Assembly: GCA_937124965.1 (NCBI GenBank)
Contig: CAKZLB010000046.1
Coordinates: 100,776 to 164,775 of the forward strand
From: an uncultured Bacteroidota bacterium
GTDB taxonomy: Bacteria > Bacteroidota > Bacteroidia > NS11-12g > UBA9320
DNA length: 64,000 nt
Direction: 5' to 3'
The notes under the pieces are model-generated. The model did no database searches and was not told where the DNA came from. It saw only the letters and a program-made list of their open reading frames with translations. Position numbers and translations under genes: made by a program. This document shows, in pieces, positions 18,875 to 42,309 of the stretch (the first letter of the stretch is position 1; every line of letters begins with the position of its first letter).

Positions 18875-18972
18875 ACTTCAAAAATACACTAGGTTACGTA
18901 TATTAAATATTGAAATCATTAGAAAATAATAACAGAATTAAGGAATTCATTTACCCTTAAAACAAATTGAAT

Positions 18973-21900
18973 TTATCGCAGAATGTTTATGGTACCACTA
19001 AATTCATAGCTTGCCCCTGATAGGCTTGTTGCTTGAATCATGTAAGCATAAATCCCAATTTCGCAGAATTTATTACCTGACTTTCCGTCCCACTCTTCTG
19101 AAATGTCATCAGACTTATAGACTTGTTGGCCCCAACGATTAAATATTTCTATGTGGAATGAAGAAACGTTATTCCCAATAACTTTAAACTCTTCCGTTAT
19201 CTCAGACCCCTTATTGTTAGGTGAAAAGGCACTTGGAATATAGAGTTTAATGTCAGGCCCGACGTAAATATTACGAATAAATATATCTTCACAACTATAT
19301 TGATTAACAACCTTCAATGAAACTGGATAAACCCCTGTATCACTTTCAAAGCTAAATGTTGGAGACATTTCTGAGCTGGTATCTTGTGGGTTATTAGTTC
19401 CAAAATCCCAGAAGAACCTAACATTGTCACGATTAGGTGTCTTATTTACAAAAGAAACAATTGGTTCTCTTATTGAAACTTGGTCGCTAGGCAATGTATT
19501 GAATAGGGCAATCGGACTTTCATGAGCCTTTACTAGGTTTTCCCAAGTAAAGGTGTTCATACATCCTTCATTTGTTTCTGTCGTGAAACTAACAGAATAA
19601 TTCCCAGCGTCTTTGTAATTGTGACTTGGTTTAAGTTTATTTACGGGTTTTGACCCATCTCCATAATTCCAATTCACCATAACGTCTTTCCACATAATCC
19701 CTTCAACCGGAATAGCTTTGAAATTTGGCTCAAAAGTGAACGGAACACACCCTTCATAATAGCTTTCCAATAGTTCGATTTTGGCCAGCGGGTTAATTGT
19801 TATCTTATATTTTTCTATTTCAATTGGACAATAACCAATGCCTTGTAGCTCTAATGTTACTTCTAAAGATCTATTTGTAATATCATTAGCTGAAGGTTGG
19901 TATACCCAACGTTTCTTTTTAGTAAATATTTCGGTTGCACTGTCAGGACCAGTAATCTTTAGCCATCCATTGCTCACATTAATTTGCTCCAATTTCAATT
20001 CTTCCCCTTCACAAATCGAAGCCGGTAGTTGGTTAAACACTGAATACTGAGGTCTCTCAAAGATTTTAAGATTTTGAGGATATGTAAAATTGCAAAAGTC
20101 TTTGTTAACTATATAATCAAATGATACGTTTCCATTTGCTTGTGTGAGATCAATTTGGCTACCAGTTACAAAATCACCCGTAAAATTTCCAATATCAGGA
20201 TTTGCACTCAGGGTGTAAAAATCATCAAATTGACAAACACTATCAACAATATCAAATTCAATTACTGGTTTGCAAACCACAGTCAATGTTAAGTCTTTAC
20301 TCACATAGCACCCAAATTGATCGTATGTATAGTTTAATCCTATAATCCCGCAGCTATCAGGATTCCGGAATTGCGAATTGTATACGTCTTCAAAATCACT
20401 TGTGGAATTCCAACTGCCTCCAATAATAGGTATTGAAAAAATATCAGTTAGTGATCGAACATCATCTTGACATATATTCTTATCGGAAATCTGCGATAAA
20501 TCAATGTTGTCTAACAATGATAAAACTCCAGTATCTCTAGTGGAGCACCCAAAATCATTAGTATATTCTCCAATAATTTGATAGTCTCTAATTTGTAGCC
20601 CCGTTAGTTCTACTAAATGAGGTTTATTGAGTTCATTATGATTAAGTGGGTTCCCATCAATTAACCATGTAATGTCATAGTCGCCAAACGAGAACAAACG
20701 ACTATCCATATTCGTCAAATTGAAATACCCTGTTGCACCACATACAGTCGTTTTTGTCAAATCAAATGAAGGATTTGGATGGACCCACAAACAATATGTG
20801 TCTTTCGAAACACATCCTGACGAAAGTGAAGAGGAAGAAAATTCTTGACATAAATACTCCGAAGTTGTTATGTCGCTTAAACTTGAAAACTGTAGTTTGT
20901 CATCAGATAACATATCATGTTCTAAAGCTTTCCAGTTACCATCTTGGCTATTTGTTATTGTAGATAAGTCTAATTGTTTCTCACTTGCACATAAAAACTC
21001 TATGTTGTTAAACGTTATTTCAGGACCTTGTTCAACCACAATATCAACAGTATGTGTGTCTCGGCACTGTAAACCAAAACGTTTCCCAAAAACAAAAGCC
21101 CCAATTGAGTTTGCTCCATGTAATTGATCAGAAGCGCCAGAAAAACTCTTTTCAGTCTTAAACCTACTGCCATTTAGTTGCCAATAAATTGAATCTACTG
21201 ATGTATTTGTATACCCATTCGCTTCTAAGTGGATTGTATCACCTAGGCAATAATTGGTTTTTCCTTGAACAGTAGTAAAAGATTCAACAAAATCTAGGCG
21301 CGTGCGTTTAATCGGAGTTATAAATGAATCCTTACATCCAAGTTTTGATCGCATAACTGCAATCAGTTGTCCGTCAATTTGTTCGTCTAAAAACACAGTG
21401 TCAGATAACCCGATTGAGTGATATCTAATTTGATTAGACTGGTTTACTATTTTCCAATCAACTTCATGCAAAGTATTTGAATACGTTGAATCTCCAACAA
21501 GTGACAGATTCCCGCACCATAAGTCATTTACAAAAACATTGTTCTCTGGCAGATCCTTAACAAAAATCGTATAATCTTGTGTTATGGAAGATGTCAATGG
21601 GCAGTTATTGTCGGTTGCAGTTACTCTAAGAGTAAAGACATTTCCAGCATCCGTAACCTTAGGTTTCCAGCAAAATGAAAGTTTGTTATAAGGAGCATTT
21701 GATTGTGACACCTCAGTGATTGTGGCGCCAACAATATTTGTCTCATAGGTATAACTTACTGAGTTACTTTTCTGAAAAGACCCATCAGGAAACTTGTAAG
21801 CTTTATCCTCGGCCGTTATATCAAAACACAGCTCTTCGCCTAAGCACACCTCTAAGTCGTTGTCGGTTCCTAATGAAGTACCTTGTAGTCTGGGAGCATT

Positions 21901-22848
21901 ATTGTGTGATCCAATCGACGAAGTTTCTACTAATATATCACGTCGAATAGTACTGATTAATTTAGTTCCCGTTTCAGTATTTCTGAACGTGTTAACCTGA
22001 ATTACAATAGTTGCTTTTTCACTATTTTTTATAGGTGTAAAAGCGAGATATCCAGATTTCTTATTTAGTGTCATGCCAACTGGTAAGTTAGCGAAAGCAT
22101 TCGGTGTACAAGATGCGTCACCGTTGCACCAAACTGTAATCGGACGATTAACAGTATAACCACTTCTGTAGTTTATGGTTTCGTGAGCCTCCCGTAACGG
22201 TTGAGCAAACTCCACCACTACCGAATCGGTGGTATTTAACTGCGAAACATATGTTCTTACCGGTACATTAATTGGGAGGATAAGTTGTGGGTTTGCGGTA
22301 AAACTTGGAGAATCATGTATTTCGAAAGGGTTTATAAAACTATAGTTATACAGACGCTCTTCGGGTGTTGATTGTGACAAATTATCGATATCATCTGCTC
22401 TACTTGATAGTTGCACATACATTTCGAACCCACATGACTGGTACGATTTATAATTTTCAAAATCAATTTGAACAGAAAATGTATGAGCTTCCACGCCATA
22501 GGAAATACCTGTATCACTTTGACACTTTGAACTTGCTGACTGACACAATGGAAGAATCTCTACAATATTCTCTCGAGTCAAAGTCATTGTTCGCAGATTC
22601 GTGCTTGTGCATGTACCACGATCTGAAGTCTTCAAGTATAAAAAAATTGAATCACAATTCTTTGTGTTACTTCCCCCGCCAGCACCAGCAATTTTACATT
22701 CATTACAATCCCTGTAGACAGTAACAAAAGCATTGTATTTATAATCTGAAACATGCTTATAGGTAATTTCTGCTCCCAAGATATGAGAGGCATATGTTGA
22801 ACCACAAAGGCCAACAAGCAACCATAAAACACCTATTATTTTTTTCAC
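18973..22848 (-). CDS. Giant surface protein with T9SS type-B ('gliding motility-associated') C-terminal domain
   Basis: Signal peptide. Mature N-terminus ASHILGAEITYKHV. C-terminus YIPSAFSPNNKGSEITEEFKV...IEIFNRWGQQVYKS...EWDGK matches the PNAFSPNGDG-type CTD. Confidence 0.75.
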   Translation of the reverse strand: MKKIIGVLWLLVGLCGSTYASHILGAEITYKHVSDYKYNAFVTVYRDCNECKIAGAGGGSNTKNCDSIFLYLKTSDRGTCTSTNLRTMTLTRENIVEILPLCQSASSKCQSDTGISYGVEAHTFSVQIDFENYKSYQSCGFEMYVQLSSRADDIDNLSQSTPEERLYNYSFINPFEIHDSPSFTANPQLILPINVPVRTYVSQLNTTDSVVVEFAQPLREAHETINYRSGYTVNRPITVWCNGDASCTPNAFANLPVGMTLNKKSGYLAFTPIKNSEKATIVIQVNTFRNTETGTKLISTIRRDILVETSSIGSHNNAPRLQGTSLGTDNDLEVCLGEELCFDITAEDKAYKFPDGSFQKSNSVSYTYETNIVGATITEVSQSNAPYNKLSFCWKPKVTDAGNVFTLRVTATDNNCPLTSSITQDYTIFVKDLPENNVFVNDLWCGNLSLVGDSTYSNTLHEVDWKIVNQSNQIRYHSIGLSDTVFLDEQIDGQLIAVMRSKLGCKDSFITPIKRTRLDFVESFTTVQGKTNYCLGDTIHLEANGYTNTSVDSIYWQLNGSRFKTEKSFSGASDQLHGANSIGAFVFGKRFGLQCRDTHTVDIVVEQGPEITFNNIEFLCASEKQLDLSTITNSQDGNWKALEHDMLSDDKLQFSSLSDITTSEYLCQEFSSSSLSSGCVSKDTYCLWVHPNPSFDLTKTTVCGATGYFNLTNMDSRLFSFGDYDITWLIDGNPLNHNELNKPHLVELTGLQIRDYQIIGEYTNDFGCSTRDTGVLSLLDNIDLSQISDKNICQDDVRSLTDIFSIPIIGGSWNSTSDFEDVYNSQFRNPDSCGIIGLNYTYDQFGCYVSKDLTLTVVCKPVIEFDIVDSVCQFDDFYTLSANPDIGNFTGDFVTGSQIDLTQANGNVSFDYIVNKDFCNFTYPQNLKIFERPQYSVFNQLPASICEGEELKLEQINVSNGWLKITGPDSATEIFTKKKRWVYQPSANDITNRSLEVTLELQGIGYCPIEIEKYKITINPLAKIELLESYYEGCVPFTFEPNFKAIPVEGIMWKDVMVNWNYGDGSKPVNKLKPSHNYKDAGNYSVSFTTETNEGCMNTFTWENLVKAHESPIALFNTLPSDQVSIREPIVSFVNKTPNRDNVRFFWDFGTNNPQDTSSEMSPTFSFESDTGVYPVSLKVVNQYSCEDIFIRNIYVGPDIKLYIPSAFSPNNKGSEITEEFKVIGNNVSSFHIEIFNRWGQQVYKSDDISEEWDGKSGNKFCEIGIYAYMIQATSLSGASYEFSGTINILR

Positions 22849-22888
22849 TGAGTTATTGTTACACTAAGATACAATTAAATTATAAAAA

Positions 22889-22914
22889 GAAAGCAGTGCG
22901 TTAACACTGCTTTC
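22889..22914 (-). terminator. Rho-independent terminator between the two giant type-B genes
   Basis: On the minus strand, AAAGCAGTG-ttaacg-CACTGCTTT (9-bp stem) is followed by cttttTaTaaTTT. Confidence 0.5.
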
Positions 22915-22932
22915 TAAAATGTTGATTAATAT

Positions 22933-25900
22933 CTATCGAATTAGTGTTACAGTTCCTGTGTATTTGAACTTTTCACCACTCCAGCTTACAATCTCAAGGT
23001 AATATCCGTAAACATCTTGTGTTACATCATCGCGTTGATCATGACCAGCAGTTTTTGGATCACCATCCCATTCTGCATTTCGGCCATACTTTCCATCCCA
23101 CTCAGCTAATCGATCTTTCGTTTCCCAAATCACTTCACCCCATCTATTGAATATCATTAAGTGATAATCTCTAGCAGCATCATTAACAACTGCTCTAAAG
23201 CCATCGTTTGCTTCTGGCCCTCCGCCATCTGGGGAGAACGCATTTGGAATAAATACTAATATGTCTGGTCCAATTAATACTGGGTAAGTAAACTCACTTT
23301 CACAGCCGTAGTTAGTTCTTACTCTCAATGTTACGTCAAAGGTTCCAGTATCAGATGGATAGAAAAATAGTGGACTTACTTCTGTTGAAGTATCATCAAC
23401 TTCAGACAAGATACCGAAATCCCATTCATTATCTACAATGGTACTTCCAAGAACACCGCTCGTTGTAGACTCATTATTAAATTGGAATCTTGGCAATGCA
23501 GCAGTTGTACTATTATTCGGGTTAGGAACAAAAAGAGCATTTGGTATAGGATAAACTTCAACGTCTTCTGTTATTGTCGTATCGCACCCAAAAGCTGAAG
23601 TAACCGTTAATGTTGCTGTATTCAAACCATCAACTGTGAATTGGTATCCTGGATTTTGTGCAACGTCAGAGCCTCCATCATCGTATGACCACTCATAGGT
23701 TGAAGTTGTTGGATCAACGTCGTTCAATATAGAAGTTGTAAATGCAACATCCACAGGGTTACATCCATTCAACGTATCAGCGGTAATTGCAGGTTTTGGG
23801 ACAGGATGAACGAATACTTGTGATGTAGTATCAACCGCAGGGCAAACGTTTCCTGCGTTTACAATTGTTGTTGCATAAAACAGTAGACGAGTCACAGAAT
23901 CGGCAGAAGATGTAAAATTAAACGTAGTTTTATCTGCACTTGGATTTGACATTGATCCACCTAAAAGTGCCAGCCATAACACCTCAGTTGCATTCGTATA
24001 AGTAGCTTCTAACTCGAGAGACATATTGTCATCATATCTACAAAATGAAGTATCCTTAGGAATTTCAATAGTGTGTTTTTGATGTATTACAACCTGAACT
24101 GAATCTCGTCCTTCACAACCATGTATATCGGTATAATCATATTTCATATAAAATGGCTGATTATAATTAGATGCACCTGCAGGGCTAAATGTTCCTGTAG
24201 AAGATAATGCTCCACTTTCAGTTGTTGACCAATCTCCTCCAGAATAGTTCACTTCTAAGTCCATGTCTGGATTTGTTTCACAGAAAGTATATGGAGAAAA
24301 CGAATTGTTTACTTCACCTAGAGGTACTTCGTTGATAATTGGTATAGGAAGACCTCGAATTGTTAAGGTTGTATCTCTAAACGTCGGACAACCTGAACGA
24401 TCGTGTGAAAAACGCATAATATATGTCAAGCTATTTCCTTCACCTGGGTTTGTTGTTCCAAGAGTATTTAATGTGTCACCATTCAAAGTGTCACCTTTCA
24501 AGGCAATATTCAAACCAGACGCTGGAGCAAAACCACTTGAGTCTACTGCTTTCCAAATACCATCGTAAGGAGTTACTTTGGTTAATGCTTTAAGATCAAC
24601 AATTCCCTCATCCCAACATAAATCTGGGAATGCATCGAAGTCAATCTTAGGCACTTTAGTTATTGCTATCTCACCTGTATCTCGGTTATAACAACCGAAC
24701 ACATTTCTAAATTCAAACTCTACAGAGATTGTATCTGATAACTTAGAACCAAGAGGAATTACATTTTCATCAATATGGAGTACATAATCCTGAGTTGCAC
24801 CTGGACCTCCACCATTTACGTCCTCTATAATTTCATTTTCTTTATATGTTCCGCAATCAACACATTTCCATGCTTGACGACCTAAGGCTAGTGTACCGCC
24901 ACCTGGTCTAACGATTATTTTATCATTTTTTACATTGACAATTTCCTTGTCCTGACAGAAGTAACCGTCTCTTAACTCTACAATTGGGAGTGGATTTACT
25001 TTAATCTTGAACGAATCCGTTTTCACACAACCTGTTGAAGGGTGCACATATTGATAACTAATATTCCAAGTCCTTGATTTAGTTGCATGTCCCGCTTTGT
25101 CTGTAATAAACTCAGATTGCTTTTCAACTAGCTCAGCAGAGTCAGAACAAAACCAAATACCACCTGACGCATTCGCATCTTCTAGAATTCTTAGGTTAAT
25201 CTTACCTGCGTCATGACAAACATCCATATCTCCAGGCATTTTAACGGTAGGCAACGGGTTAACCGTTATTATCACTGTATCGGCGTCGTAACATGTTGTC
25301 GTGTCTTCAGTCACAAAAAGTTCTAACTGAAAATCGGTACTATTTTGAATATTATACGCTAGGGTATCTTTAGTTCCCATGTCTGTCCGTGCTGGCGGAT
25401 TTGTTATATCCCACCACCTAAACGTTCCAGATTTGGACGTCCCGGCAGTATCCAACTCAGTTCCTATAAGCTCCATAAAATCATTCCAACAGTATGTTTT
25501 ATCTAAACCAGCATTTGCAACAACGGTATCGTTGACAGCCAACACCATGGTATCCGAGGCATAACAACCTAAACTGTCAATTACTTTGATAACATATTCA
25601 CCTTGGTCATGCAAACCTTCCATGGTCGTATCTTCACTCACCAGAACCCCGTCCAAATACCACTCTTTCAAAAGAGTGTCTCCTTGTCTCACTCTAATTT
25701 CAGAAGTGTCTCTTGGATCATCCCAATACGCTAAACTATCGTTTGGTATCAAATTAATGGTATCATACGTACAAATTCTGCGATCTGGACCAATAAATAC
25801 CAATGGATTCTCTTTCAAGAAAATAACAGTGCTATCCCAAGCAATACAATTATTCTGATCTTTAATTTCTACGTAGAAAGTTGAATCCTCGGTTCTATTT

Positions 25901-27696
25901 GGGATTTGTACATCGACAAACGAAGTGGTATCACCTGTTCCCCATTTGAAGCTTACTGGCATGCTGCCATTCGCAACCTGTGGCTCTAAACGCAACGTTG
26001 TTCCTGCACAAACAAATGTATCTGGACCAAATGCTAAATCAACTTCCAACAATGGTGGAACCACCAATGTGTCATAGTAGTCATTTGGACACTTAGGACT
26101 ATTATTAATAGTATGTTGAATTATATATGTTCCTCCCTTTCTAAACTTTAGGGTATCATATTGTTTAGAACTTATAAAAGAGGTTGTACTTTCAAAATAT
26201 CCAATTCCTTTATCGAAAATAACAACACCGCTAGTATCCTTTAATTGCCAAGAATATTTAGCAGGGTTTTTAAAGTTTGGAAATGGCTTACTTTCAATGG
26301 CATATCGTCCACAATCCAATTTCGTGATTTTTCTATCTGCTTCAGCAATTGGATTTACCTTTACCAAGAATGCTCGAACAGTTACAGCATTCAAAGGACA
26401 AGCATCATCACGTGCAGTTACTGTATATGAATATGGTAGATCACTGGCAGCACCAATTGGAGGTGTCCAACAGAATCGCGCTGATTGATTGATTGCTTTT
26501 GCATTAGTAACCGTAAATGATGCTCCTGGAATACCACGATTCCATTTCACTGTCACCGTATCCGGATCGGGTGTGGGCAACGGTGGTGGCGGAACCTTGA
26601 CCTTGTCCTCCGTGGTTATTGTATAACAGAGCTGGGAGCCCTCACAAACCGTCGAAGTAAACTGCCCTTTTATAATGGGCGGATTATTCCCGGGACATTG
26701 CTTGGTAATAAACTGCATATCCCGCCTTGTGACCCCAATTACTTCATATTTCCCTTTATCGTTCTTTCTCCATTCCTTTACTTCCAATACTGCAACAGTA
26801 ATCTCATCACACTTTACTGGTGTAAAAATTAAATCTCCAGTTTCTTCATCTAAATAGATTCCGATTGGTGGATTAGCATTTTGATTAACATATGGTGGCT
26901 TTAATGAACCTGGGTAGTAAGAATCAAATGGGTTCTTGTACGTATAGTTTCCACTGTAAGCGATTTTATTATTATACCCTCTTAATGGATCAGCAAATGA
27001 ATATGACAATGAATCAAAGTCTGATGTATCCGATGCACCATTATTATAGTAGAATGGTTGGTTACAACATAAGTATGCAATTGGCTCCGTTGTTAACGAA
27101 GGCGAAGAGTTACACGGTGCTTTACAAAGGTCAATAGTAGCATACGTATAAAAGTTCTGGTTTGCAGCTCCCGAAGTAATGTTCGAGTTTCTACAACACT
27201 GCCCTGTTTCTAATCGAATTTCACAACAGCCATTTTTAGTCAAATTACTATAAGGCGCCTTGTTAAAGTCAATAGTAACAGTATAATAATGCTCTTCAAT
27301 GCCGTCACCTGTTCGACTTGTATTAGAAGGATTACAAGGTTTGGTTGCAGTAGCACAAACCGGCGTTACATCTCGAATACTTTGACGTGTCAAAGAAACT
27401 CCTTGTGAAGCTCCAGTTTTTGTACAAATCAACTTCGTGATATTACTTGGGTTACCAAAAGGAACCCCACCACAATAACGATAATATTTTACCGTAAATT
27501 CAAATTTTAATGTGTCGAGACACTTGTACGTGATGTCCGCTCCCATTACGTGTGTTGCTTTTGCTTGTTGTACATTCGCAAACAACACGAATCCAAGTAA
27601 TGCTAGCGTGCTGACAATCAGACGCTTAAACCTCAGTGTATATTTTTGTAGACCTTTTTCCATAATAAACGTGCTAAAATAATCTTTTTTGTCCAA
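22933..27696 (-). CDS. Giant surface protein with T9SS type-B C-terminal domain (paralog of 18973..22848)
   Basis: Signal peptide. Mature N-terminus ATHVMGADITYKCL (same motif as its neighbour). C-terminus VFIPNAFSPDGGGPEANDGF...LMIFNRWGEVIWET...EWDGK. Confidence 0.75.
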   Translation of the reverse strand: MDKKDYFSTFIMEKGLQKYTLRFKRLIVSTLALLGFVLFANVQQAKATHVMGADITYKCLDTLKFEFTVKYYRYCGGVPFGNPSNITKLICTKTGASQGVSLTRQSIRDVTPVCATATKPCNPSNTSRTGDGIEEHYYTVTIDFNKAPYSNLTKNGCCEIRLETGQCCRNSNITSGAANQNFYTYATIDLCKAPCNSSPSLTTEPIAYLCCNQPFYYNNGASDTSDFDSLSYSFADPLRGYNNKIAYSGNYTYKNPFDSYYPGSLKPPYVNQNANPPIGIYLDEETGDLIFTPVKCDEITVAVLEVKEWRKNDKGKYEVIGVTRRDMQFITKQCPGNNPPIIKGQFTSTVCEGSQLCYTITTEDKVKVPPPPLPTPDPDTVTVKWNRGIPGASFTVTNAKAINQSARFCWTPPIGAASDLPYSYTVTARDDACPLNAVTVRAFLVKVNPIAEADRKITKLDCGRYAIESKPFPNFKNPAKYSWQLKDTSGVVIFDKGIGYFESTTSFISSKQYDTLKFRKGGTYIIQHTINNSPKCPNDYYDTLVVPPLLEVDLAFGPDTFVCAGTTLRLEPQVANGSMPVSFKWGTGDTTSFVDVQIPNRTEDSTFYVEIKDQNNCIAWDSTVIFLKENPLVFIGPDRRICTYDTINLIPNDSLAYWDDPRDTSEIRVRQGDTLLKEWYLDGVLVSEDTTMEGLHDQGEYVIKVIDSLGCYASDTMVLAVNDTVVANAGLDKTYCWNDFMELIGTELDTAGTSKSGTFRWWDITNPPARTDMGTKDTLAYNIQNSTDFQLELFVTEDTTTCYDADTVIITVNPLPTVKMPGDMDVCHDAGKINLRILEDANASGGIWFCSDSAELVEKQSEFITDKAGHATKSRTWNISYQYVHPSTGCVKTDSFKIKVNPLPIVELRDGYFCQDKEIVNVKNDKIIVRPGGGTLALGRQAWKCVDCGTYKENEIIEDVNGGGPGATQDYVLHIDENVIPLGSKLSDTISVEFEFRNVFGCYNRDTGEIAITKVPKIDFDAFPDLCWDEGIVDLKALTKVTPYDGIWKAVDSSGFAPASGLNIALKGDTLNGDTLNTLGTTNPGEGNSLTYIMRFSHDRSGCPTFRDTTLTIRGLPIPIINEVPLGEVNNSFSPYTFCETNPDMDLEVNYSGGDWSTTESGALSSTGTFSPAGASNYNQPFYMKYDYTDIHGCEGRDSVQVVIHQKHTIEIPKDTSFCRYDDNMSLELEATYTNATEVLWLALLGGSMSNPSADKTTFNFTSSADSVTRLLFYATTIVNAGNVCPAVDTTSQVFVHPVPKPAITADTLNGCNPVDVAFTTSILNDVDPTTSTYEWSYDDGGSDVAQNPGYQFTVDGLNTATLTVTSAFGCDTTITEDVEVYPIPNALFVPNPNNSTTAALPRFQFNNESTTSGVLGSTIVDNEWDFGILSEVDDTSTEVSPLFFYPSDTGTFDVTLRVRTNYGCESEFTYPVLIGPDILVFIPNAFSPDGGGPEANDGFRAVVNDAARDYHLMIFNRWGEVIWETKDRLAEWDGKYGRNAEWDGDPKTAGHDQRDDVTQDVYGYYLEIVSWSGEKFKYTGTVTLIR

Positions 27697-27718
27697 TATT
27701 AAATTCCTTAAAATGTCA

Positions 27719-29266
27719 TCAATCGGTTGTGAAAATCACTTTCTTTATTATCATTCCGTTTGATGTTGTTGCCTTTATTAAGTAGATACCAGCCGACAAC
27801 TTTTCGCTGCATGGTACCTTATATTTTTTTTTCTCGTTATCCACAACTATTAAACATCCAAGCTTTTTCCCTTCGATGCTCCATAGTTCTGGGTTGTCGC
27901 CAGAAACCATTAATACATCCGAAATGCGCAGATTGAGTGGATTTGGATACACATTAAAACCGTTATTGAAACTAATTTTTCTTAATGATAACGTTTCATT
28001 GTAACGTCTAATTATCCTTTCTGTTTGCTCAGTCAGGGCACCCTCAGACGATTTTGCAGCATCTCCAAGCGCGAAAACGAAAGCAAAATCAATCTTTTTG
28101 AAGGATTTAGGTTGGAAGCTATTAAACTTTGAAACAGCTAAAAATTTTCGAACTCCTGGCGTATCCCCAGAATTTTCATCTCTCCAGTTATACTGCGAAG
28201 TGTTCCATTCTGTTTTTCCTGGATATATAAACTTAGTTTTTTCTGCTTCTGTTCCGACGAAACCTTTACCGTTCGAATATTTCGGATTTCCACTTAACCA
28301 GTTTCCTTCCAAAATCGACAACATCTGGTCTTCTGTTTCAGGAAACCCTCGTGCGCTGTCTCCCTTTACTAGACCTGATGAAGCATATAACCGTTGATTC
28401 AAGAAAAGCACTCCTGCAGAAGGGAGCTTAGTCTCAAATCCACCCTGATCAATTGAGTCACCATTATAACCATAAACCAAATCTCGACTGAGATCCGTTG
28501 CGATATAATTATCGTTTCGGTTCCCCAGTTCTAAATCAACATACTGGCCGTAATAAAAAGGAGAGTAGTTATTTGTTGAACGATTAATAACAAATAGCCT
28601 AACAAATATTGCATTTGACAACATTGGGTCGTCGTAAACAAACGCCATTCCCTGCATTTCTAACCCCATTTTATTGGCCTGTGGAAACACATTTTCTCCG
28701 TACAAGTCATTGAGTATAAAGTAAACCGCGTGATCTCCATTGAAACTTGGGTAATCTCCGTTTTCAGGATCGTATACACCATTTTTATTCCAATCAACAA
28801 AAGGCGCTAAGTACGCATTTACGTTAGTTTCATTGTGTTTTGAAGGCCAGTTATTGAAAGACTCTGGAACTTGATACCCAGTGTTTTGAAAATTTTCTAA
28901 GTGGTTAGTCACCTCAGATTTAGATACTGCCCAAACTTTGGACCAGCTCACGGCACTTTTTGCCAAATTTGTTGCGGTATCAATTGGGCCTGGCCATAAC
29001 TGTTGAGTTTCTCCACCAACATTTTTATTCGCATAAATTGTCCCACCCACTACACCTGCCATCCAACTGTTTGAATAACGAATTAGCTGTGGACCAATAA
29101 CCTCCTCTAAGTTTGACAATGGTTGACTATTCTTTTGAGAGAAAAATGTACCATTCGACTGAACAACCGCATTTAAACTTTTTGAAGAAAGAATACTGGA
29201 GTCACTTTGTCCAAAACAAAATGTTCCAACAAGCATCCACATACAAACGGTTACAATTGACTTCAC
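27719..29266 (-). CDS. Secreted protein with T9SS type-A C-terminal sorting domain
   Basis: Signal peptide MKSIVTVCMWMLVGTFCFGQ. C-terminus NVYPNPLNLRISDVLMV...GIYLIKATTSNGMIIKKVIFTTD. Only a 22-nt gap to the downstream giant gene. Confidence 0.55.
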   Translation of the reverse strand: MKSIVTVCMWMLVGTFCFGQSDSSILSSKSLNAVVQSNGTFFSQKNSQPLSNLEEVIGPQLIRYSNSWMAGVVGGTIYANKNVGGETQQLWPGPIDTATNLAKSAVSWSKVWAVSKSEVTNHLENFQNTGYQVPESFNNWPSKHNETNVNAYLAPFVDWNKNGVYDPENGDYPSFNGDHAVYFILNDLYGENVFPQANKMGLEMQGMAFVYDDPMLSNAIFVRLFVINRSTNNYSPFYYGQYVDLELGNRNDNYIATDLSRDLVYGYNGDSIDQGGFETKLPSAGVLFLNQRLYASSGLVKGDSARGFPETEDQMLSILEGNWLSGNPKYSNGKGFVGTEAEKTKFIYPGKTEWNTSQYNWRDENSGDTPGVRKFLAVSKFNSFQPKSFKKIDFAFVFALGDAAKSSEGALTEQTERIIRRYNETLSLRKISFNNGFNVYPNPLNLRISDVLMVSGDNPELWSIEGKKLGCLIVVDNEKKKYKVPCSEKLSAGIYLIKATTSNGMIIKKVIFTTD

Positions 29267-29281
29267 GAAATAAAATTTTAT

Positions 29282-30757
29282 TTACAATCCAACTTTTAAA
29301 CCGAACATCAGACCATACCCGCGATCTTTTTGACTGATGGTATAACTTGAGTTATTTGTTGGGTTTAAAAAGAACATCGCTCTAGGTTCAGCAATCAGGC
29401 TGATTCGTTTCGTTGCCAAGTAACTAATTCCAGCACCAAAGCCTGCCGAAGCACCAATACTAGTTCTATTAAAGCTTTCTCCTAATTGCATGGTTTCGAA
29501 GGAATTTGTGATAATGTTTCCTTTAGACTGGTTTACAACCTCTAAACCGAATTGACCTGAAACATAACAACTCCATTTTTCAAAACGTGGAACATAAAAG
29601 TTGCGTCTAACACCAAACGGAATAGAAACATGTCTATATTTATTTGAAGAATTCCCTTCTAAAACAGTAGACTTTTGTCGAACTACTGTATCATAAATTG
29701 TAATTTCTCGTTGACCATAAACGGGATGGTATTCAGTTACTTTCTTTTCGGAAACATCAATCCACATGTCATTATTCTCAACGCTAAATTCCATTTTTTC
29801 ATGACGATTAAAACTATTTACTCCAAAGTAACCTTCCCATTTATCCGTCAACCTATAGTTCAGAGAAATTTCAGCCATCGTTGAAGCTCTCTGATATTCG
29901 GTATTGTCACGTAATTCTATCAAACCATTGTCTGTGCTTGAACTCTTCAAGACTCTTTGACCAATCGCTGGCCCTACAGTCATTGAGACACTCCACTTTT
30001 TTGGTTTAACTATAGGTACATCAAATCCTCCCAAATCGTCATCACTGCTTACATCCACCGCATCTTCCGCCATTTTCTCCGTTGATTCGCCCACCTCTAT
30101 GGTTATGTCTTTTTCCTTTGATTCACTTACTGTAATTTCAGGTTGATTGCTGTCGACATCATTATTTTCATGAGAAGTTTGGCTTACGCTTGGTTTGTTT
30201 TCTTCAGGAACTTGAGTAAGTTTTTCGTTTGTTCTAGTTGCCCCCGCAGCCGTATATTGGTTATTATTTGAATTAGTGGTTTCAGATTGTACATGGTTAG
30301 GTTTAGCAATCTCGTTTGGTTTTGTTTCTTTAGAATTTATTGGTTCGTTTATTGGTTTGTTAACCTCAGACTTTACAAAAGTCGCTTCTTGTTCTAATGA
30401 TTTCTCATTTTCTGTTATGTCAACATCCTTTGATGCGACTTTATTAGTAATATCATTTTTTACAACTTCTTTCGCAATTGATTCCACTTTATTAACCTTT
30501 ATGTTCGATTGGTTCGATAACGTGTTTTGAGTTGTGTCGGAATTTGATATAAACCCGAAGTAGCCAATAACTACCCCAACAAATAGAGTAGCAGCAATTA
30601 ACTTATATTTATTCAGTATTAATTTATTTCTGAATATGTAAAACGGTGTTCGTTTTTCAAACACCTTCCCCATCAAATCAGGAGCTTTTTCCTGATGATC
30701 ATAAAGGAGATCTTTTACGCTTTGTTCAAAATTTTTCTTCTGCATTTCAACTTTCAA
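29282..30757 (-). CDS. Putative anti-sigma-like membrane protein with low-complexity linker and C-terminal outer-membrane beta-barrel-like domain
   Basis: Overlaps the ECF sigma gene by 11 nt. Single hydrophobic helix LIAATLFVGVVIGYFGF (~aa 52-70). About 180 aa of N/S/T/E/K-rich linker. The C-terminal ~230 aa show an alternating beta-strand pattern ending ...GYGLMFGLKVGL. Confidence 0.5.
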   Translation of the reverse strand: MKVEMQKKNFEQSVKDLLYDHQEKAPDLMGKVFEKRTPFYIFRNKLILNKYKLIAATLFVGVVIGYFGFISNSDTTQNTLSNQSNIKVNKVESIAKEVVKNDITNKVASKDVDITENEKSLEQEATFVKSEVNKPINEPINSKETKPNEIAKPNHVQSETTNSNNNQYTAAGATRTNEKLTQVPEENKPSVSQTSHENNDVDSNQPEITVSESKEKDITIEVGESTEKMAEDAVDVSSDDDLGGFDVPIVKPKKWSVSMTVGPAIGQRVLKSSSTDNGLIELRDNTEYQRASTMAEISLNYRLTDKWEGYFGVNSFNRHEKMEFSVENNDMWIDVSEKKVTEYHPVYGQREITIYDTVVRQKSTVLEGNSSNKYRHVSIPFGVRRNFYVPRFEKWSCYVSGQFGLEVVNQSKGNIITNSFETMQLGESFNRTSIGASAGFGAGISYLATKRISLIAEPRAMFFLNPTNNSSYTISQKDRGYGLMFGLKVGL

Positions 30758-31310
30758 TTTTTTCCAACATGGAAATTAGATTTCTCCTCGCTCTTGCATA
30801 TTGAGAGCGAGAAGTACTCTCATTTATGTTTAGTAGTTCACCAATTTCTTTGTGGCTGTAACCTTCAACTGCAAAAAGGTTAAAGACCACTTGATAACCT
30901 TCTGGCAGCTTCTTAATCATTGCCATTATTTCTTTTACCCCAATGGAGTCAAGAACCATTTCACTCACGACTGGCTCCTGAACATCATCGATGTTGCCGG
31001 GCTCAAATTTTTTTGATCGCTTATCCCAGCTTCGCAAAGCAGTGTTTACCATAATCCGTCTCATCCACCCCTCAAAACTTCCCTCCTGTCTAAACTTCGA
31101 CACTTTGTCAAAGATTTTGATAAACGCTTCTTGAAGAACATCCTCCGCTTCCTCTTTACTGTTGCAGTATCGCATACAAACACTAAACATTTTATCTGCG
31201 TACTTTTTATACAACAAGCCTTGCATGTGGCGGTCTTCGCGAATGCATCCCTTAATTAGCTCCTCATCGCTATTCATCCATTCTCCACTATGTTGTTCTT
31301 CCTTGCTCAA
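30747..31310 (-). CDS. ECF-subfamily sigma-70 factor
   Basis: Region 2 (LLYKKYADKMFSVCMRYCNSKEEAEDVLQEAFIKIF...FEGWMRRIMVNTA) and region 4 HTH (LPEGYQVVFNLFAVEGYSHKEIGELLNINESTSRSQYARAR). Confidence 0.85.
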   Translation of the reverse strand: MSKEEQHSGEWMNSDEELIKGCIREDRHMQGLLYKKYADKMFSVCMRYCNSKEEAEDVLQEAFIKIFDKVSKFRQEGSFEGWMRRIMVNTALRSWDKRSKKFEPGNIDDVQEPVVSEMVLDSIGVKEIMAMIKKLPEGYQVVFNLFAVEGYSHKEIGELLNINESTSRSQYARARRNLISMLEKIES

Positions 31311-31419
31311 CTCTATGACACTTTGTGTTCTTAAAACGCTGCGTTAACTCTACAAAAGTTTCAATTTTTAAAAATATTCAGCATAATTAACTGAAAAACA
31401 ATGAAATACAAAGTAAAAA

Positions 31420-31452
31420 AATCATTTGACAAGCATATCAGCTTCTTATATT
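31420..31452 (+). promoter_or_regulatory. Bacteroidetes sigma-A type promoter candidate (TTG ... 19 nt ... TATATTTG)
   Basis: tTTGacaagcatatcagcttctTATATTTG matches the -33 TTG / -7 TAnnTTTG consensus, 17 nt upstream of the Ldh_2 start. Confidence 0.3.
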
Positions 31453-31468
31453 TGCAACAAAAAAATGC

Positions 31469-32560
31469 ATGGCTGCTGAATATCACACCGTTAATCCCAA
31501 AAAACTTCTTGAACTAACCACCTCAATTTTTATTAAAATGGGCTGTTCTGCTACAGATGCCGCTCTTGCGGCTGAAGTACTCCAAAGTGCAGACCTGAGA
31601 GGTATCGACAGCCATGGAGTAGCGAGACTTAGTGGTTACGTGCGATTATGGAAAGCTGACCGGATAAATGCAAAAGCAAATCCCAAAATTATCCATGAGA
31701 CGGCAACAACTGCAACATTAGACGGTGATTCTGGCCTAGGACTTACCAATGCTGCAAAGGCTATGGACATTGCCATTGAAAAAGCGAAAAAATATGGTAG
31801 CGGTTGGGTTGCTATTCAAAATTCCAATCATTTTGGCATTGCTGGTTATCACGCAATGAAAGCGCTGAAACATGATATGATTGGCATGTCGTTAACCAAT
31901 GCAAGCCCATTGGTCTCTCCCACTTTCAGTAAAGAACGTTTATTGGGTACAAATCCAATTTGTTATGCAATACCTGCAGGCAAATGCGAACCTGTTGTAA
32001 TCGATATGGCCACTTCCGCAGCTGCAAATGGTAAACTAGAAATTGCAAAACGAAAAAATGAGCCAATTCCTTCTGGTTGGCTTCAGGATAAAAAAGGTTC
32101 TATTTCAAATAATCCAGACGACTTAAAAGGTGGTGGTAGTTTACTCACGCTTGGTAGCACCAAAGAAATGGGCAGTCACAAGGGATATGGTCTAAGTGCT
32201 TTTGTCGATATTTTTAGCGGTGTTTTAAGTGGTGCAAATTATGGCCCATGGGTTCCACCATTTGTAAGTTTTTTACCATTGGCACCCGATATGCCGGGAA
32301 AAGGCATTGGACATTTCGTTGGGGCCATGCGCGTTGACGGATTCCGACCAATTGAAGAATTCAAATCAAACATGGACCAGTGGATACATCGATTTAAATC
32401 TTCACAAACTATTGAAGGTCAAGAAAAAGTGATTATTCCAGGTGAACCAGAAATCGAAATGTTCAAAGAACGGACATCTTCAGGGATCCCATTAATTGAT
32501 GCTGTTTATCAGGATTTACAAACGTTAAGTAATGAACTAGACGTTCAATTTACTATTTAG
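31469..32560 (+). CDS. Ldh_2-family malate/L-lactate/sulfolactate-type dehydrogenase
   Basis: GIDSHGVARL, NSNHFGIAGYHA and the overall 363-aa architecture match the Ldh_2 family. Confidence 0.8.
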   Translation: MAAEYHTVNPKKLLELTTSIFIKMGCSATDAALAAEVLQSADLRGIDSHGVARLSGYVRLWKADRINAKANPKIIHETATTATLDGDSGLGLTNAAKAMDIAIEKAKKYGSGWVAIQNSNHFGIAGYHAMKALKHDMIGMSLTNASPLVSPTFSKERLLGTNPICYAIPAGKCEPVVIDMATSAAANGKLEIAKRKNEPIPSGWLQDKKGSISNNPDDLKGGGSLLTLGSTKEMGSHKGYGLSAFVDIFSGVLSGANYGPWVPPFVSFLPLAPDMPGKGIGHFVGAMRVDGFRPIEEFKSNMDQWIHRFKSSQTIEGQEKVIIPGEPEIEMFKERTSSGIPLIDAVYQDLQTLSNELDVQFTI

Positions 32561-33326: not shown

Positions 33327-33938
33327 ATGCTAGAGTTTGGGTTGGATGAAAATAGGCTAGAAGCTGGATGCGATGAAGCAGGTCGTGGTTGCATTGCTGG
33401 GCCTGTTTGTGCAGCCTCTGTAATTCTACCGAAAGGCATAAATCTCCCGGAACTCAATGATTCCAAAAAACTGAGTAAAAAGAAACGTGACATACTTCGA
33501 ATTCAAATTGAACAGGAAGCATTGGCATGGTCCGTTGCGATGGTCTGGGAAAAAGAGATTGATCAGATAAACATACTCAATGCTTCAATTAAAGCGATGC
33601 ACTTATCATTAGATTCATTAGACGTTGAACCAGAATTTATTATGGTTGATGGTAATCGATTTAAACCTTACAAATCCATCCCGCACAAAACCATAGTTAA
33701 AGGTGATGCAAAATTTTTAAATATTGCAGCCGCCTCTATTCTTGCAAAAACACACCGTGATGAATATATGGTAAAACTTCATGACGAGTTTCCGCACTAT
33801 AATTGGATTCAAAACAAGGGATATCCAACAATTGAACATCGATCTGCGGTAATAATGCACGGTATGTGCCAACACCATAGAAAGTCATTTAAAAATACTG
33901 ATTCACAATTAAAAATATGGAATTCAAAAACGTTGTAA
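33327..33938 (+). CDS. rnhB: Ribonuclease HII
   Basis: GCDEAGRGCIAGPV active-site region and DSKKLS. Start set at the internal ATG (MLEFGLDE...). The 55-codon upstream extension in the ORF track is not supported. Confidence 0.9.
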   Translation: MLEFGLDENRLEAGCDEAGRGCIAGPVCAASVILPKGINLPELNDSKKLSKKKRDILRIQIEQEALAWSVAMVWEKEIDQINILNASIKAMHLSLDSLDVEPEFIMVDGNRFKPYKSIPHKTIVKGDAKFLNIAAASILAKTHRDEYMVKLHDEFPHYNWIQNKGYPTIEHRSAVIMHGMCQHHRKSFKNTDSQLKIWNSKTL

Positions 33939-34690
33939 CCATACTGTTCATATTCTTTACCTCAACAATTGCTAATGCACAGAAGCAATACTATTTTGGG
34001 ATAGACATTGGGCCAAAATTCGATCAATACAAATTGGTAAAAAATAGTCAACAAGCATTTTCGCCAAACATAAAAATTTATAATCCGTTGGCCGCAACTT
34101 TTGGTGTTTTAGGAGGAATGATGCTGGAAGAAAAATATCAACTTGAAGCGGGCATTTACAAATCAGATTTTCGAGTGAATATTGATTTACTGACACAGAG
34201 TGGTGACAAATTTTTCGTCAATACTCCGATAAACACTTTTACGAGTTACATGATTCCTATTAATTTCAATGTGGTAAAAACATGGCAAGGAAAGTATGAA
34301 CCCAGGCATTTTATATTTGGGACAGGTTTCACGATACTAGCGAACACAAAATTAGGTATCGCAGAAACTTTTTTTAGCCCTGAAGTACCTATTGACCCTC
34401 AAAATTCAAGTGCTGGTGCGATTTCATATGTAATCTCAGATAACACCATTGATGGTGGAATGGTTATGCTTAATCTTAATTTAGCGTATCGATATCCAAT
34501 AAATGAATCAGTAAACATCAGCGTTGGAATGAATTCAAAAATTGGAGTAGCGGGTACCAACTATTTTAATATTTCACATTCTACCCCAAACTTTGCCCCT
34601 GTGAAAAATCGACTTGAAACGAAAGGATCCAGCGTCCAGTTTAATATAGGATTTAGATACTTTCTCGAATCCGAAGAAGCAAATCTATAA
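33917..34690 (+). CDS. Outer-membrane beta-barrel-like hypothetical protein
   Basis: Signal peptide MEFKNVVTILFIFFTSTIANAQ. Alternating hydrophobic strands. Overlaps the rnhB 3' end by 22 nt. Confidence 0.45.
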   Translation: MEFKNVVTILFIFFTSTIANAQKQYYFGIDIGPKFDQYKLVKNSQQAFSPNIKIYNPLAATFGVLGGMMLEEKYQLEAGIYKSDFRVNIDLLTQSGDKFFVNTPINTFTSYMIPINFNVVKTWQGKYEPRHFIFGTGFTILANTKLGIAETFFSPEVPIDPQNSSAGAISYVISDNTIDGGMVMLNLNLAYRYPINESVNISVGMNSKIGVAGTNYFNISHSTPNFAPVKNRLETKGSSVQFNIGFRYFLESEEANL

Positions 34691-40496: not shown

Positions 40497-41273
40497 ATGC
40501 CCTATTTTAAACCACTTTTGGGACTGTGTCTTTTTGCTGTTGCTTGCAACAATTCTCAAACAATCTCAACAGACCAAAACGTACCCTCAGAAGAGGTTAC
40601 AGAAGTAATTTCTAAAGACGATGCACAAGGCATTCAGAAAAAATCATTTAGTAGTAAATCTCTTGGATCGGTATCAGAAGGACGTTTGGTGAATGGAAAA
40701 AGTGTGCCTTTTGAAGGTCCTAATTTTCGTTATTTTGACTCGCTAAGCTTTGTAAACGAAAGGTGCTATCTCAACGATAGGGTACTGTCTGTTGTACTGC
40801 ATGCATATGAAGATTTGGAAAGAAAAGCACCGAACCGACAGTTCACCATTATGGAGTGTTCCAACAAAGATGGAGGTGTTATCCAGCCTCACCGAACCCA
40901 TCAAAACGGTTTAAGTATTGACTTTATGGTTCCCTTACAAAAAGATAATTTACCATGTTACGATTATGACGCTATAGGAGGAAGACATTATTTACTTGAT
41001 TTCAATAATAACGGCCAATTAGTCTCAGACACCGATGTACAGATCGATTTCGACTTAATAGCAAAGCATCTATTAACCCTTGACTCCATTGGAAAAACCA
41101 AAAACGTACAGATTAAAAAAGTAATTCTTAAAACCGAGTTTAAAAAACAATTATTTAACACATCTAGCGGCAACGTTTTAAGGTCAGCAGGCATCTATTT
41201 TGTGCAAAAGCTAACACCGTTAATTAACGAACTACATGACGACCATTACCACATTGATTTTGAAATTATTTAA
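40497..41273 (+). CDS. mepA: Penicillin-insensitive murein endopeptidase (peptidase M74, MepA-like)
   Basis: HRTHQNGLSIDF and ELHDDHYHIDF correspond to the MepA zinc-binding blocks (HxxHQxGLDVD / HDDHFHV). Signal peptide present. Confidence 0.75.
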   Translation: MPYFKPLLGLCLFAVACNNSQTISTDQNVPSEEVTEVISKDDAQGIQKKSFSSKSLGSVSEGRLVNGKSVPFEGPNFRYFDSLSFVNERCYLNDRVLSVVLHAYEDLERKAPNRQFTIMECSNKDGGVIQPHRTHQNGLSIDFMVPLQKDNLPCYDYDAIGGRHYLLDFNNNGQLVSDTDVQIDFDLIAKHLLTLDSIGKTKNVQIKKVILKTEFKKQLFNTSSGNVLRSAGIYFVQKLTPLINELHDDHYHIDFEII

Positions 41274-42309
41274 CCATTCAACTTTTTTTGTACTTGGTTG
41301 CATAATGGTATGTTACAGTTGTGATGATCAAACAGGTAAGGCAAATGAAACTTCAAATCACCTTACAACTGAGGAAAACTATGAGGTAATTAAAAGTGTA
41401 AATAATTACTCTTACTACAATTCTCAGTACACTGTTACGATTAAAACGGTTAAAAATTCAAATATCTACAAAGTCAATATGGTTCGGGACAGCTTATTGG
41501 TATTTGATGCTTGGATTGACTCCGAACAATTGAGAATTGCAACCGATTCTTCAAAGAACAAAAACATCATTAAAGAGTATTCCCGTTTAGCTAATTTACC
41601 CGTCCAAGAACTAGCTTCTACTGGCGGTGGACGCTTAGGTTACACGTATTTCAAAGCCACTTTTGCACCACCAAATGACAAAAAAGTTGTTTTACGATTT
41701 GGGATAAACTATTTAAAAGATCCTGGAAAAATTGTGGTTTTAGGGATTTATACTTTACAGAACCCAATTGTAGATTATGAAAAGGAATCACCTACTACTG
41801 ATTTAAAGAGAAACCATGAAAACGAACGAACGGCATTTATTCAGAACTTTTTGGGGCGATATCGATTCGAAAAGACTTCTTCAGCAGAACCATATTCTCG
41901 TGTGATAAAAGCCAACCGTTTTTATCAAATAAATCTCAAATCTACTGAGTCATTCATTAACAAGTATAGTCAAAAAGATTACAACGAATTTCGTTTTGAT
42001 TTCTATTATTACAGAAATAGTGATGAACTTAAAGAAGTCAGGAAAGAGATTATTTCAAATTATGGGACGGGAGGAATGGAAATTACACCTGAAACAAAAG
42101 GCGTTAAAAACCCACCACAATACTACATATTTAACGATTCAACGCTTATTGTTGGGAAGATGTCGTGCGAAACCATGGATATGGATTCCTTTTGGACCTG
42201 GGACCATGTTAAACAAGCTATGCGTGAAGCTTTTGCAGATTCTACCAGTGAAATAATTGGTAACGATTGCGCTAGTCCGTTTTATTGGATTAATAATAAG
42301 GAAGAGTAA
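41236..42309 (+). CDS. Hypothetical (lipo)protein
   Basis: Possible lipobox VLGC near the N-terminus. Alternative start at 41305. No recognisable domain. Confidence 0.4.
   Translation: MTTITTLILKLFNHSTFFVLGCIMVCYSCDDQTGKANETSNHLTTEENYEVIKSVNNYSYYNSQYTVTIKTVKNSNIYKVNMVRDSLLVFDAWIDSEQLRIATDSSKNKNIIKEYSRLANLPVQELASTGGGRLGYTYFKATFAPPNDKKVVLRFGINYLKDPGKIVVLGIYTLQNPIVDYEKESPTTDLKRNHENERTAFIQNFLGRYRFEKTSSAEPYSRVIKANRFYQINLKSTESFINKYSQKDYNEFRFDFYYYRNSDELKEVRKEIISNYGTGGMEITPETKGVKNPPQYYIFNDSTLIVGKMSCETMDMDSFWTWDHVKQAMREAFADSTSEIIGNDCASPFYWINNKEE

Follow-up and report, generated by a model that had tools for sequence, protein, structure and literature searches.

How can an extracytoplasmic function (ECF) sigma factor be informed of events at the outer membrane, and can a single polypeptide carry that information across the whole cell envelope? 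This question is raised by two adjacent genes on the minus strand of a 64,000-nucleotide stretch of DNA (contig CAKZLB010000046.1 of assembly GCA_937124965.1, positions 100,776 to 164,775; hereafter the window, by which we mean the whole stretch), whose host belongs to an uncultured marine-type/environmental lineage of the Bacteroidia. One gene encodes an ECF sigma factor and the other a partner protein, for which a preliminary description had proposed a chain reaching from the inner to the outer membrane. Our data indicate, with a probability of roughly 0.8, that the pair is an ECF sigma factor together with a Dma-type anti-sigma factor that is predicted to extend from the cytoplasm to the outer membrane within one polypeptide. 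The gene arrangement, the domain layout, the barrel fold, the size of the family, the conservation of the gene cassette and the conservation of a motif upstream of the sigma gene were obtained directly in this analysis. The envelope-spanning design had been predicted in 2022 (PMC9308784) and tested experimentally in 2024. As it was thus already described in Bacteroides between 2022 and 2024, the window pair is a new, divergent member of the Dma family and not a new design. The earlier view of the design as notable therefore stands as far as the layout is concerned, which is supported computationally, and falls as far as novelty is concerned (PMC9308784, PMC10927553).

The sigma open reading frame (ORF) matches Sigma70_r2 (2.8e-17) and Sigma70_r4_2 (1.1e-15) in Pfam as well as TIGR02937 (1e-26), in agreement with its first assignment as an ECF sigma factor, and the protein is 88-89% identical to the sigma factors of close relatives and 40-56% identical to those of distant cassettes. 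The extension obtained by starting at TTG, LSKEEQHSGEW (31278-31310 (-)), is kept at the DNA level in relatives. A putative ECF promoter, considered below, would place the transcription start near this TTG, so that the true start of the sigma factor may be the ATG at 31277 (MNSDEEL) and the conserved stretch upstream of it a 5' leader.

The two genes had been thought to be translationally coupled through an 11-nt overlap. That overlap arises only when the partner ORF (29282..30757 (-), 491 aa) is begun at the TTG at 30757, which is not conserved; in one relative (L001), read by eye from the sequence, the upstream TTG is out of frame with the partner ATG. A Met-Gln start is conserved in all homologues and corresponds to the ATG at 30745, which leaves a gap of 1 nt after the sigma stop codon (TGA, 30747-30749) instead of an overlap of 11 nt. 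What survives of the coupling argument is the tight juxtaposition itself: the distance from sigma stop to partner ATG lies between -17 and +5 nt in 10 related loci, and the partner stands directly after the sigma gene, with abutting or overlapping codons, in 11/11 loci (window included). An ECF sigma gene lies directly upstream of the partner in all seven distant relatives examined and in all close relatives. Tight coupling of sigma factor and partner is a property of the family.

The partner has no match above threshold in Pfam or NCBIfam, and no FecR/DUF4974, zf-HC2, RsdA-type or other anti-sigma domain was detected in it by scans of these two collections, even at E<=0.1 or 10, which bears out the initial remark that FecR and zinc-finger anti-sigma domains are missing. 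Judged from its homologues, the partner is a real gene and not a chance ORF, because an exhaustive HMMER search with a profile of the C-terminal domain recovered 529 representatives of 50%-identity clusters with E<=1e-3 (95 with E<=1e-10), and the full-length ones keep the same layout. Among the best 150 of the 529 representatives 135 besides the window protein are full-length, and together with it these give 136 members of 420-596 aa. In them the start of the transmembrane helix ranges from residue 37 to 75 (median 45), the 11 residues before it hold a median of 4 K/R, and a barrel domain of 238 +/- 5 aa forms the C-terminus. The family is divergent: a word-indexed homologue search found 5 proteins from the single protein and 11 from a 100-sequence profile, and distant family members are 15-24% identical overall. 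Close relatives all come from metagenome-assembled genomes (MAGs) of uncultured Bacteroidia/Bacteroidetes and share the whole neighbourhood. A related-locus search with a narrower alignment gave 7 MAG loci, and the named distant relatives belong to the Flavobacteriales and Crocinitomicaceae, in keeping with a restriction to the Bacteroidota.

The same layout has been characterized in cultured Bacteroidales. A periplasm-spanning protein with a C-terminal outer-membrane barrel was predicted in 2022 for M0N98_03760 of Phocaeicola vulgatus, encoded downstream of a sigma gene (PMC9308784). Dma1 (BT_4721) of Bacteroides thetaiotaomicron is annotated as OMP_b-brl_2 and was modelled with an N-terminal helix, a disordered region and an eight-stranded barrel. 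Residues 1-40 suffice to pull down Das1, an ECF21 sigma factor, doubly tagged full-length protein is present in total membranes with only C-terminal barrel fragments found in outer-membrane vesicles (OMVs), and deletion of dma1 de-represses a regulon that includes NigD lipoproteins (PMC10927553). The Dma family has been reported as restricted to the Bacteroidota, with Dma1 present in 27/29 genomes sampled. Reo/EcfO of P. vulgatus behaves like Dma1 (PMC9308784, PMC13114119), and is said to span all five compartments and probably to sense outer-membrane stress (PMC13114119). ECF21 sigma factors are likewise found only in Bacteroidota and adjacent to Dma proteins (PMC13088901), a pattern that the window pair fits.

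Dma1 and the window protein thus share their phylum, a position right after an ECF sigma gene, a short cytoplasmic N-terminus (~40-46 aa) that replaces a classical anti-sigma domain, one transmembrane helix, a long disordered tether, a small C-terminal outer-membrane barrel of the OMP_b-brl_2 kind and a total length of ~490-500 aa (~55 kDa). They differ in that Dma1 carries the PF13568 annotation, whereas the window protein itself falls below PF13568; in the barrel domain, which is ~238 aa in the window family compared to a ~20 kDa barrel-containing C-terminal fragment of Dma1, the extra length being an insertion of ~40 aa that the model shows as a long hairpin between beta3 and beta4; in the downstream genes, which are cargo of the type IX secretion system (T9SS) in the window cassette and NigD lipoproteins in the Dma1/EcfO regulon; and in the host, an uncultured environmental Bacteroidia lineage as opposed to Bacteroides. 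The Dma2 operon resembles the window locus in encoding a sigma factor, a Dma protein of the same four-part architecture and a third protein of unknown function (BT_1557); Dma2, however, is reported only in the genus Bacteroides and affects OMV production and the expression of polysaccharide utilization loci. In the FecA-FecR-FecI system, too, an outer-membrane signal reaches an ECF sigma factor by way of an anti-sigma factor in the inner membrane, yet there a separate TonB-dependent transducer and FecR share the task which at the window locus would fall to one polypeptide acting as receptor as well as anti-sigma factor. RseA, the anti-sigma factor of sigma-E, is likewise single-pass and is degraded stepwise after an envelope signal, which is the likely release logic here as well, where proteolysis is inferred; RseA differs in that its anti-sigma domain is a classical one, in that its periplasmic domain is soluble and senses unfolded outer-membrane proteins through DegS, and in lacking outer-membrane insertion.

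Composition and AlphaFold2 models agree on the order of parts first proposed for the partner, namely a cytoplasmic N-terminus, one transmembrane helix, a low-complexity spacer and a C-terminal region of strands. The best 19-residue hydropathy window of the protein (2.19) is at residue 49, the corresponding helix spans residues 46-66 in the AlphaFold2 model and is preceded by R39, K41, K46 and K48, and a second hydrophobic segment was found in none of the 136 full-length members, the window protein included. The claim of a single helix is therefore upheld, with ~47-69 as its position. Predicted layout and barrel model together also agree with the proposal of a single chain from inner to outer membrane, for which Dma1 provides the precedent.

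A physical bridge would be formed by the segment between helix and barrel. In the window protein this tether of 176 aa consists to 70% of N/S/T/E/K/Q/D/P with 2% aromatic residues, has a net charge of -17 and is modelled with a predicted local distance difference test score (pLDDT) below 50. Linker length across the 136 members is 181 +/- 31 aa with a minimum of 110, while identity to close relatives is 15-21% in the linker, compared to 72-74% in the N-terminus, ~40% in the helix and 37-40% in the barrel; conservation of length and not of sequence suggests a spacer. It is unlikely, in our view, that the transmembrane helix instead serves for export alone, without being cleaved, and that cutting of the tether soon afterwards leaves an ordinary short anti-sigma stub in the membrane and an independent small outer-membrane protein, with no signal running along the chain. 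Such early cleavage would suit a linker whose sequence is almost unconserved, and also the observations that C-terminal fragments of ~20 and ~17 kDa dominate the Dma1 found in OMVs and that full-length protein is gone in stationary phase (PMC10927553). However, full-length Dma1 with tags at both ends was seen in total membranes (PMC10927553), and in three species of Bacteroidales the regulon is de-repressed once the anti-sigma gene is lost. Furthermore, the fusion is kept in the 135 other full-length homologues, and the linker length, held at 181 +/- 31 aa with a minimum of 110, suggests a spanning constraint.

Residues 1-46 carry a net charge of +4, with 4 K/R right before the transmembrane helix, and follow the family motif FExxxKxKLxxxExxxPxxx(W)xxIxxxR; AlphaFold2 places helices at 3-15, 24-28 and 34-44, which together with the transmembrane helix reach a pLDDT of 70-89 in the run with 136 sequences. 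We predict that this segment binds the sigma factor because it is the most conserved region of the protein and because Dma1(1-40) binds its own sigma factor (PMC10927553). The strongest constraint thus lies on the cytoplasmic segment, as expected of a sigma-binding module. Could the partner be no anti-sigma factor at all, and instead an outer-membrane protein or T9SS-associated component that merely shares an operon as part of the regulon of the sigma factor? The lack of a recognisable anti-sigma domain and the T9SS cargo genes that the cassette always carries speak for this. It is nevertheless very improbable: a 46-aa cytoplasmic N-terminus followed by a transmembrane helix is unlike the export of outer-membrane proteins, the N-terminus is the segment that tracks the highly conserved sigma factor, the place right after the sigma gene is held with overlapping or abutting codons in 11/11 loci, and the N-terminal 40 aa of Dma1 are sufficient for sigma binding (PMC10927553).

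At the other end of the predicted anti-sigma factor, residues 246-487 (242 aa) are 12% aromatic and form beta strands of alternating hydrophobicity that end, as had been pointed out at the start, in GLKVGL. When AlphaFold2 was first run, on 5 sequences, long strands appeared with a pLDDT of 70-86; a second run with 136 aligned family members gave a block-mean pLDDT of 91-98 over residues 251-486. Searched against the Protein Data Bank (PDB) with Foldseek, the model gave 109 matches with E<=1e-3, the best 50 of which are all outer-membrane beta-barrels, with no sandwich among them. The best target-normalised fits (TMt) are to 8-stranded barrels: the transmembrane domain of OmpA (9fzc_A; TMt 0.70, root-mean-square deviation 4.6 A), NspA (TMt 0.73) and OmpW (TMt 0.58). 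By sequence, neither the protein nor the family profile retrieved anything meaningful from the PDB. Pfam scans of 100 family members found PF13568 (OMP_b-brl_2) in 54 and PF13505 (OMP_b-brl) in 51, and of the 136 members 62 end in F, 40 in L and 20 in K. The earlier term porin-like thus fits the predictions as regards an outer-membrane barrel and overstates its kind, the modelled barrel resembling the small, 8-stranded ones of the OmpA/OmpX/NspA type. That the C-terminus is rather a soluble periplasmic beta-sandwich sensor, which would turn the partner into an ordinary anti-sigma factor that crosses the membrane once and has a large periplasmic domain, is the least probable of these readings, for although the window protein has no Pfam match above threshold and ends in Leu rather than Phe, the confident AlphaFold2 model, the Foldseek matches, the alternating hydrophobic residues in the predicted membrane strands and the OMP_b-brl_2 and OMP_b-brl matches of the homologues all contradict it.

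The number of 8 membrane strands was counted from the DSSP string against the sequence and not from coordinates. A 10-strand reading of the first DSSP string was dropped because the strands at 303-340 and at 344-384 are unbroken, because of the pattern of hydrophobicity and because 8-stranded barrels give the best fits. These two strands, the third and fourth, are unusually long and have polar distal halves, and the tip between them, H340-P341-V342, is conserved, with P341 invariant in 25 sequences. The resulting hairpin of ~27 residues per strand is presumed from the model to project from the cell surface. In 5 members checked, the PF13568 alignment contains ~40 extra residues relative to the model of that family, consistent with a long hairpin.

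Upstream of the sigma gene, within ~150 nt, a regular-expression search found GCARC-N18-(G/C)TC in the window, in all close relatives and in three distant loci (L015, L016 and L018). The same expression had no match upstream of the sigma gene in three others (L019, L020 and L021); inspected by eye, these have the same -35 box followed by a relaxed -10 element, ATC or TCT, with a spacing of 17 or 18 nt in L020. The conserved motif resembles the -35/-10 pair of ECF-type promoters and as such would give autoregulation. Of its three matches in the window, those at 10801 and 59378 were dismissed as antisense matches inside ORFs, and the one ahead of the sigma gene is the only intergenic match in the right orientation. 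A generic sigma-70 promoter scan did not rise above shuffled sequences.

Several points weigh against the identification of the pair as a Dma-type system. All structural statements are predictions, and strand count and hairpin come from a DSSP string. PF13568 (OMP_b-brl_2) does not match the window protein itself, and the only, weak, Pfam matches are to Autotransporter (0.034) for the window protein and to OMP_b-brl (2e-3) in 3/4 close relatives. Its last residue is Leu and not one of the aromatic residues common in beta-signals. Its link to Dma1, Dma2 and Dma3 (WP_008766767.1, WP_008762208.1 and WP_011108473.1) and to Reo is an indirect one, through architecture and through the PF13568 matches of relatives. 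The best specific NCBIfam match of the sigma factor, sigma_PG0214, scores 90.9 bits against a cutoff of 130 bits. The upstream motif is of low information and not enriched across the window (3 matches compared to 1.6 expected), and no NigD-like gene, as known from the Dma1/EcfO regulon, was noticed near the pair.

Features of the sigma/anti-sigma locus and its cassette in the window (all on the minus strand)
Feature	Coordinates	Strand	Basis or remark
Putative autoregulated ECF-type promoter, GCAGC-N18-GTC (-35/-10-like)	31317..31342	-	upstream of sigma gene
ECF sigma factor	30747..31310	-	187 aa with TTG as start, 176 aa with the ATG at 31277
Predicted Dma-type anti-sigma factor	29282..30745	-	487 aa and stop codon, begun at the conserved ATG
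Residues 1-46, cytoplasmic, predicted sigma-binding segment	30608..30745	-	conservation, family motif
Residues 47-69, predicted single inner-membrane helix, N-in	30539..30607	-	hydropathy, AlphaFold2, preceding K/R
Residues 70-245, predicted disordered acidic periplasmic tether	30011..30538	-	composition, pLDDT, identity
Residues 246-487, predicted outer-membrane beta-barrel, read as 8 strands, OMP_b-brl_2-related	29285..30010	-	AlphaFold2, Foldseek
Residues ~313-372, elongated beta3-beta4 hairpin, presumed extracellular, candidate sensor	29630..29809	-	DSSP; PF13568 insertion
Third gene, ~500-aa secreted protein with T9SS type A C-terminal sorting domain	27719..29266	-	15 nt after anti-sigma stop
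Fourth gene, 1587-aa PKD and CHU_C (T9SS type B sorting domain) adhesin-like protein	22933..27696	-	22 nt after third gene
Intrinsic-terminator-like hairpin, 12-bp stem and T run	22888..22915	-	18 nt after stop of 1587-aa gene

The two genes of the pair are followed by a third and a fourth, and the four read as an operon because the intergenic gaps measure 15 and 22 nt and a terminator comes next. That terminator has the longest stem (12 pairs) and the most G+C pairs (5) of 9 terminator-like sites in 18000-31600, and an Rfam scan of 22000-32000 gave no matches. The product of the third gene has a signal-peptide-like N-terminus followed by ~430 residues without a recognisable domain (no Pfam coverage), and carries a conserved DxNxNGxYDPxxGDYP motif that looks like a calcium loop. 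Por_Secre_tail (T9SS type A) is present in 6/6 aligned homologues, with PDB matches to structures of the C-terminal sorting domain, and the 56 relatives detected are named only as T9SS type A sorting domain-containing proteins. Downstream sequence is present in 6 of the 7 distant loci (L015, L016, L018, L019, L020 and L021), and in four of these a homologue lies directly downstream of the pair (L015:5533-7044, L016:2419-3918, L018:5435-6955 and L021:5659-7203). These homologues show 25-30% identity and 50 invariant columns, and the one in L021 is found at E=1e-60. The third position is occupied differently in L019, by a PKD protein of 275 aa that bears a T9SS sorting domain, and in L020, by a serpin. 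The fourth position is also filled in close relatives, and a large ORF likewise follows in L016.

The adhesin-like fourth gene is one of two giant PKD and CHU_C (T9SS type B) genes, of 1291 aa at 18973-22848 (-) and 1587 aa at 22933-27696 (-), with the strong terminator between them; the pair is kept in close relatives and has the look of SprB-type surface adhesins. Just downstream of the adhesin genes lies an ordinary-looking gene for a (p)ppGpp synthetase/hydrolase of the RelA/SpoT family (16676-18874 (-); HD_4, RelA_SpoT, TGS and ACT domains). A 257-aa ORF at 33917-34690 (+) starts with a segment like a signal peptide and is weakly similar to OMP_b-brl (E 0.007) and PorP/SprF (E 0.03). Its position is conserved in relatives, where it has no Pfam match, and it may form a small outer-membrane barrel or serve the nearby type B T9SS cargo as a PorP-like partner.

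Further observations concern candidate promoters. An extended -35-like box occurs twice in the window compared to 0.12 expected occurrences, once upstream of the sigma gene and once at 41170-41196 (+). The second site, GCAACGTTTTA-N-ATCT, falls within the final part of a Peptidase_M74 gene, ~40 nt upstream of an ORF (41236-42309 (+)) for a putative lipoprotein of 357 aa, which judging by this site is a possible regulon member; a metagenome scan gave no relatives of the 357-aa lipoprotein. The intergenic region 31343-31470, between the sigma gene and a divergent Ldh_2 gene (31469-32560), is ~85% identical among relatives whose anti-sigma proteins are ~35% identical. Within it a nearly invariant block of ~40 nt, TTTTTTTACTTTGTATTTCAnTGTTTTTCAGTTAATTATGC, includes TTTG-N19-TAATTATG. 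We take the latter to resemble the -33/-7 consensus of promoters for the primary sigma factor of Bacteroidota, and on account of this likeness it may act as another promoter, of the housekeeping kind. Ldh_2 is a neighbour in the distant locus L018 too.

How would such a system work? Sigma binding, insertion in both membranes, proteolytic release and the role of the motif as target promoter are here inferred from experiments on Dma1 and Reo and from general ECF biology. Both genes would be expressed from one transcript with abutting reading frames, and the 46-residue N-terminus of the partner would retain the sigma factor on the cytoplasmic side of the inner membrane. From there a single helix would cross the inner membrane and a disordered, acidic tether of ~176 residues the periplasm, and the C-terminal barrel of the OmpA/OMP_b-brl_2 type, read as 8-stranded, would sit in the outer membrane with its long beta-hairpin pointing outward. 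A disturbance of the outer membrane or cell surface would then trigger proteolysis of the tether and the transmembrane region, and the freed sigma factor would transcribe its own operon from the GCARC-N18-GTC promoter, the output also including the conserved ~500-aa T9SS-secreted protein and the 1587-aa T9SS adhesin-like protein.

The cassette of sigma factor, Dma protein and T9SS cargo, together with the predicted hairpin, suggests a subfamily with a different input or output than the OMV/NigD systems of Bacteroides. A more specific proposal, which we regard as possible and put forward tentatively, is that of a distinct and widespread non-gut Dma-type subfamily with a surface hairpin, hard-wired to T9SS-secreted proteins (the ~500-aa protein and the giant CHU_C adhesin-like protein), which would sense the state of the surface or the display of T9SS cargo and control surface-adhesin or gliding-related genes. 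If true, its role would differ from the NigD/OMV stress response of Bacteroides.

The Dma-like architecture reaches into uncultured environmental Bacteroidia, where the family is large (529 cluster representatives at 50% identity) and is in part missed by current Pfam and NCBIfam models. Genes now called hypothetical that lie downstream of ECF sigma genes and encode such a layout should be annotated as Dma-type anti-sigma factors. The cassette points to an output unlike that of gut Bacteroides, with T9SS cargo genes instead of NigD lipoproteins, and its conservation, together with the long hairpin, gives specialists handles on which signal the barrel senses.

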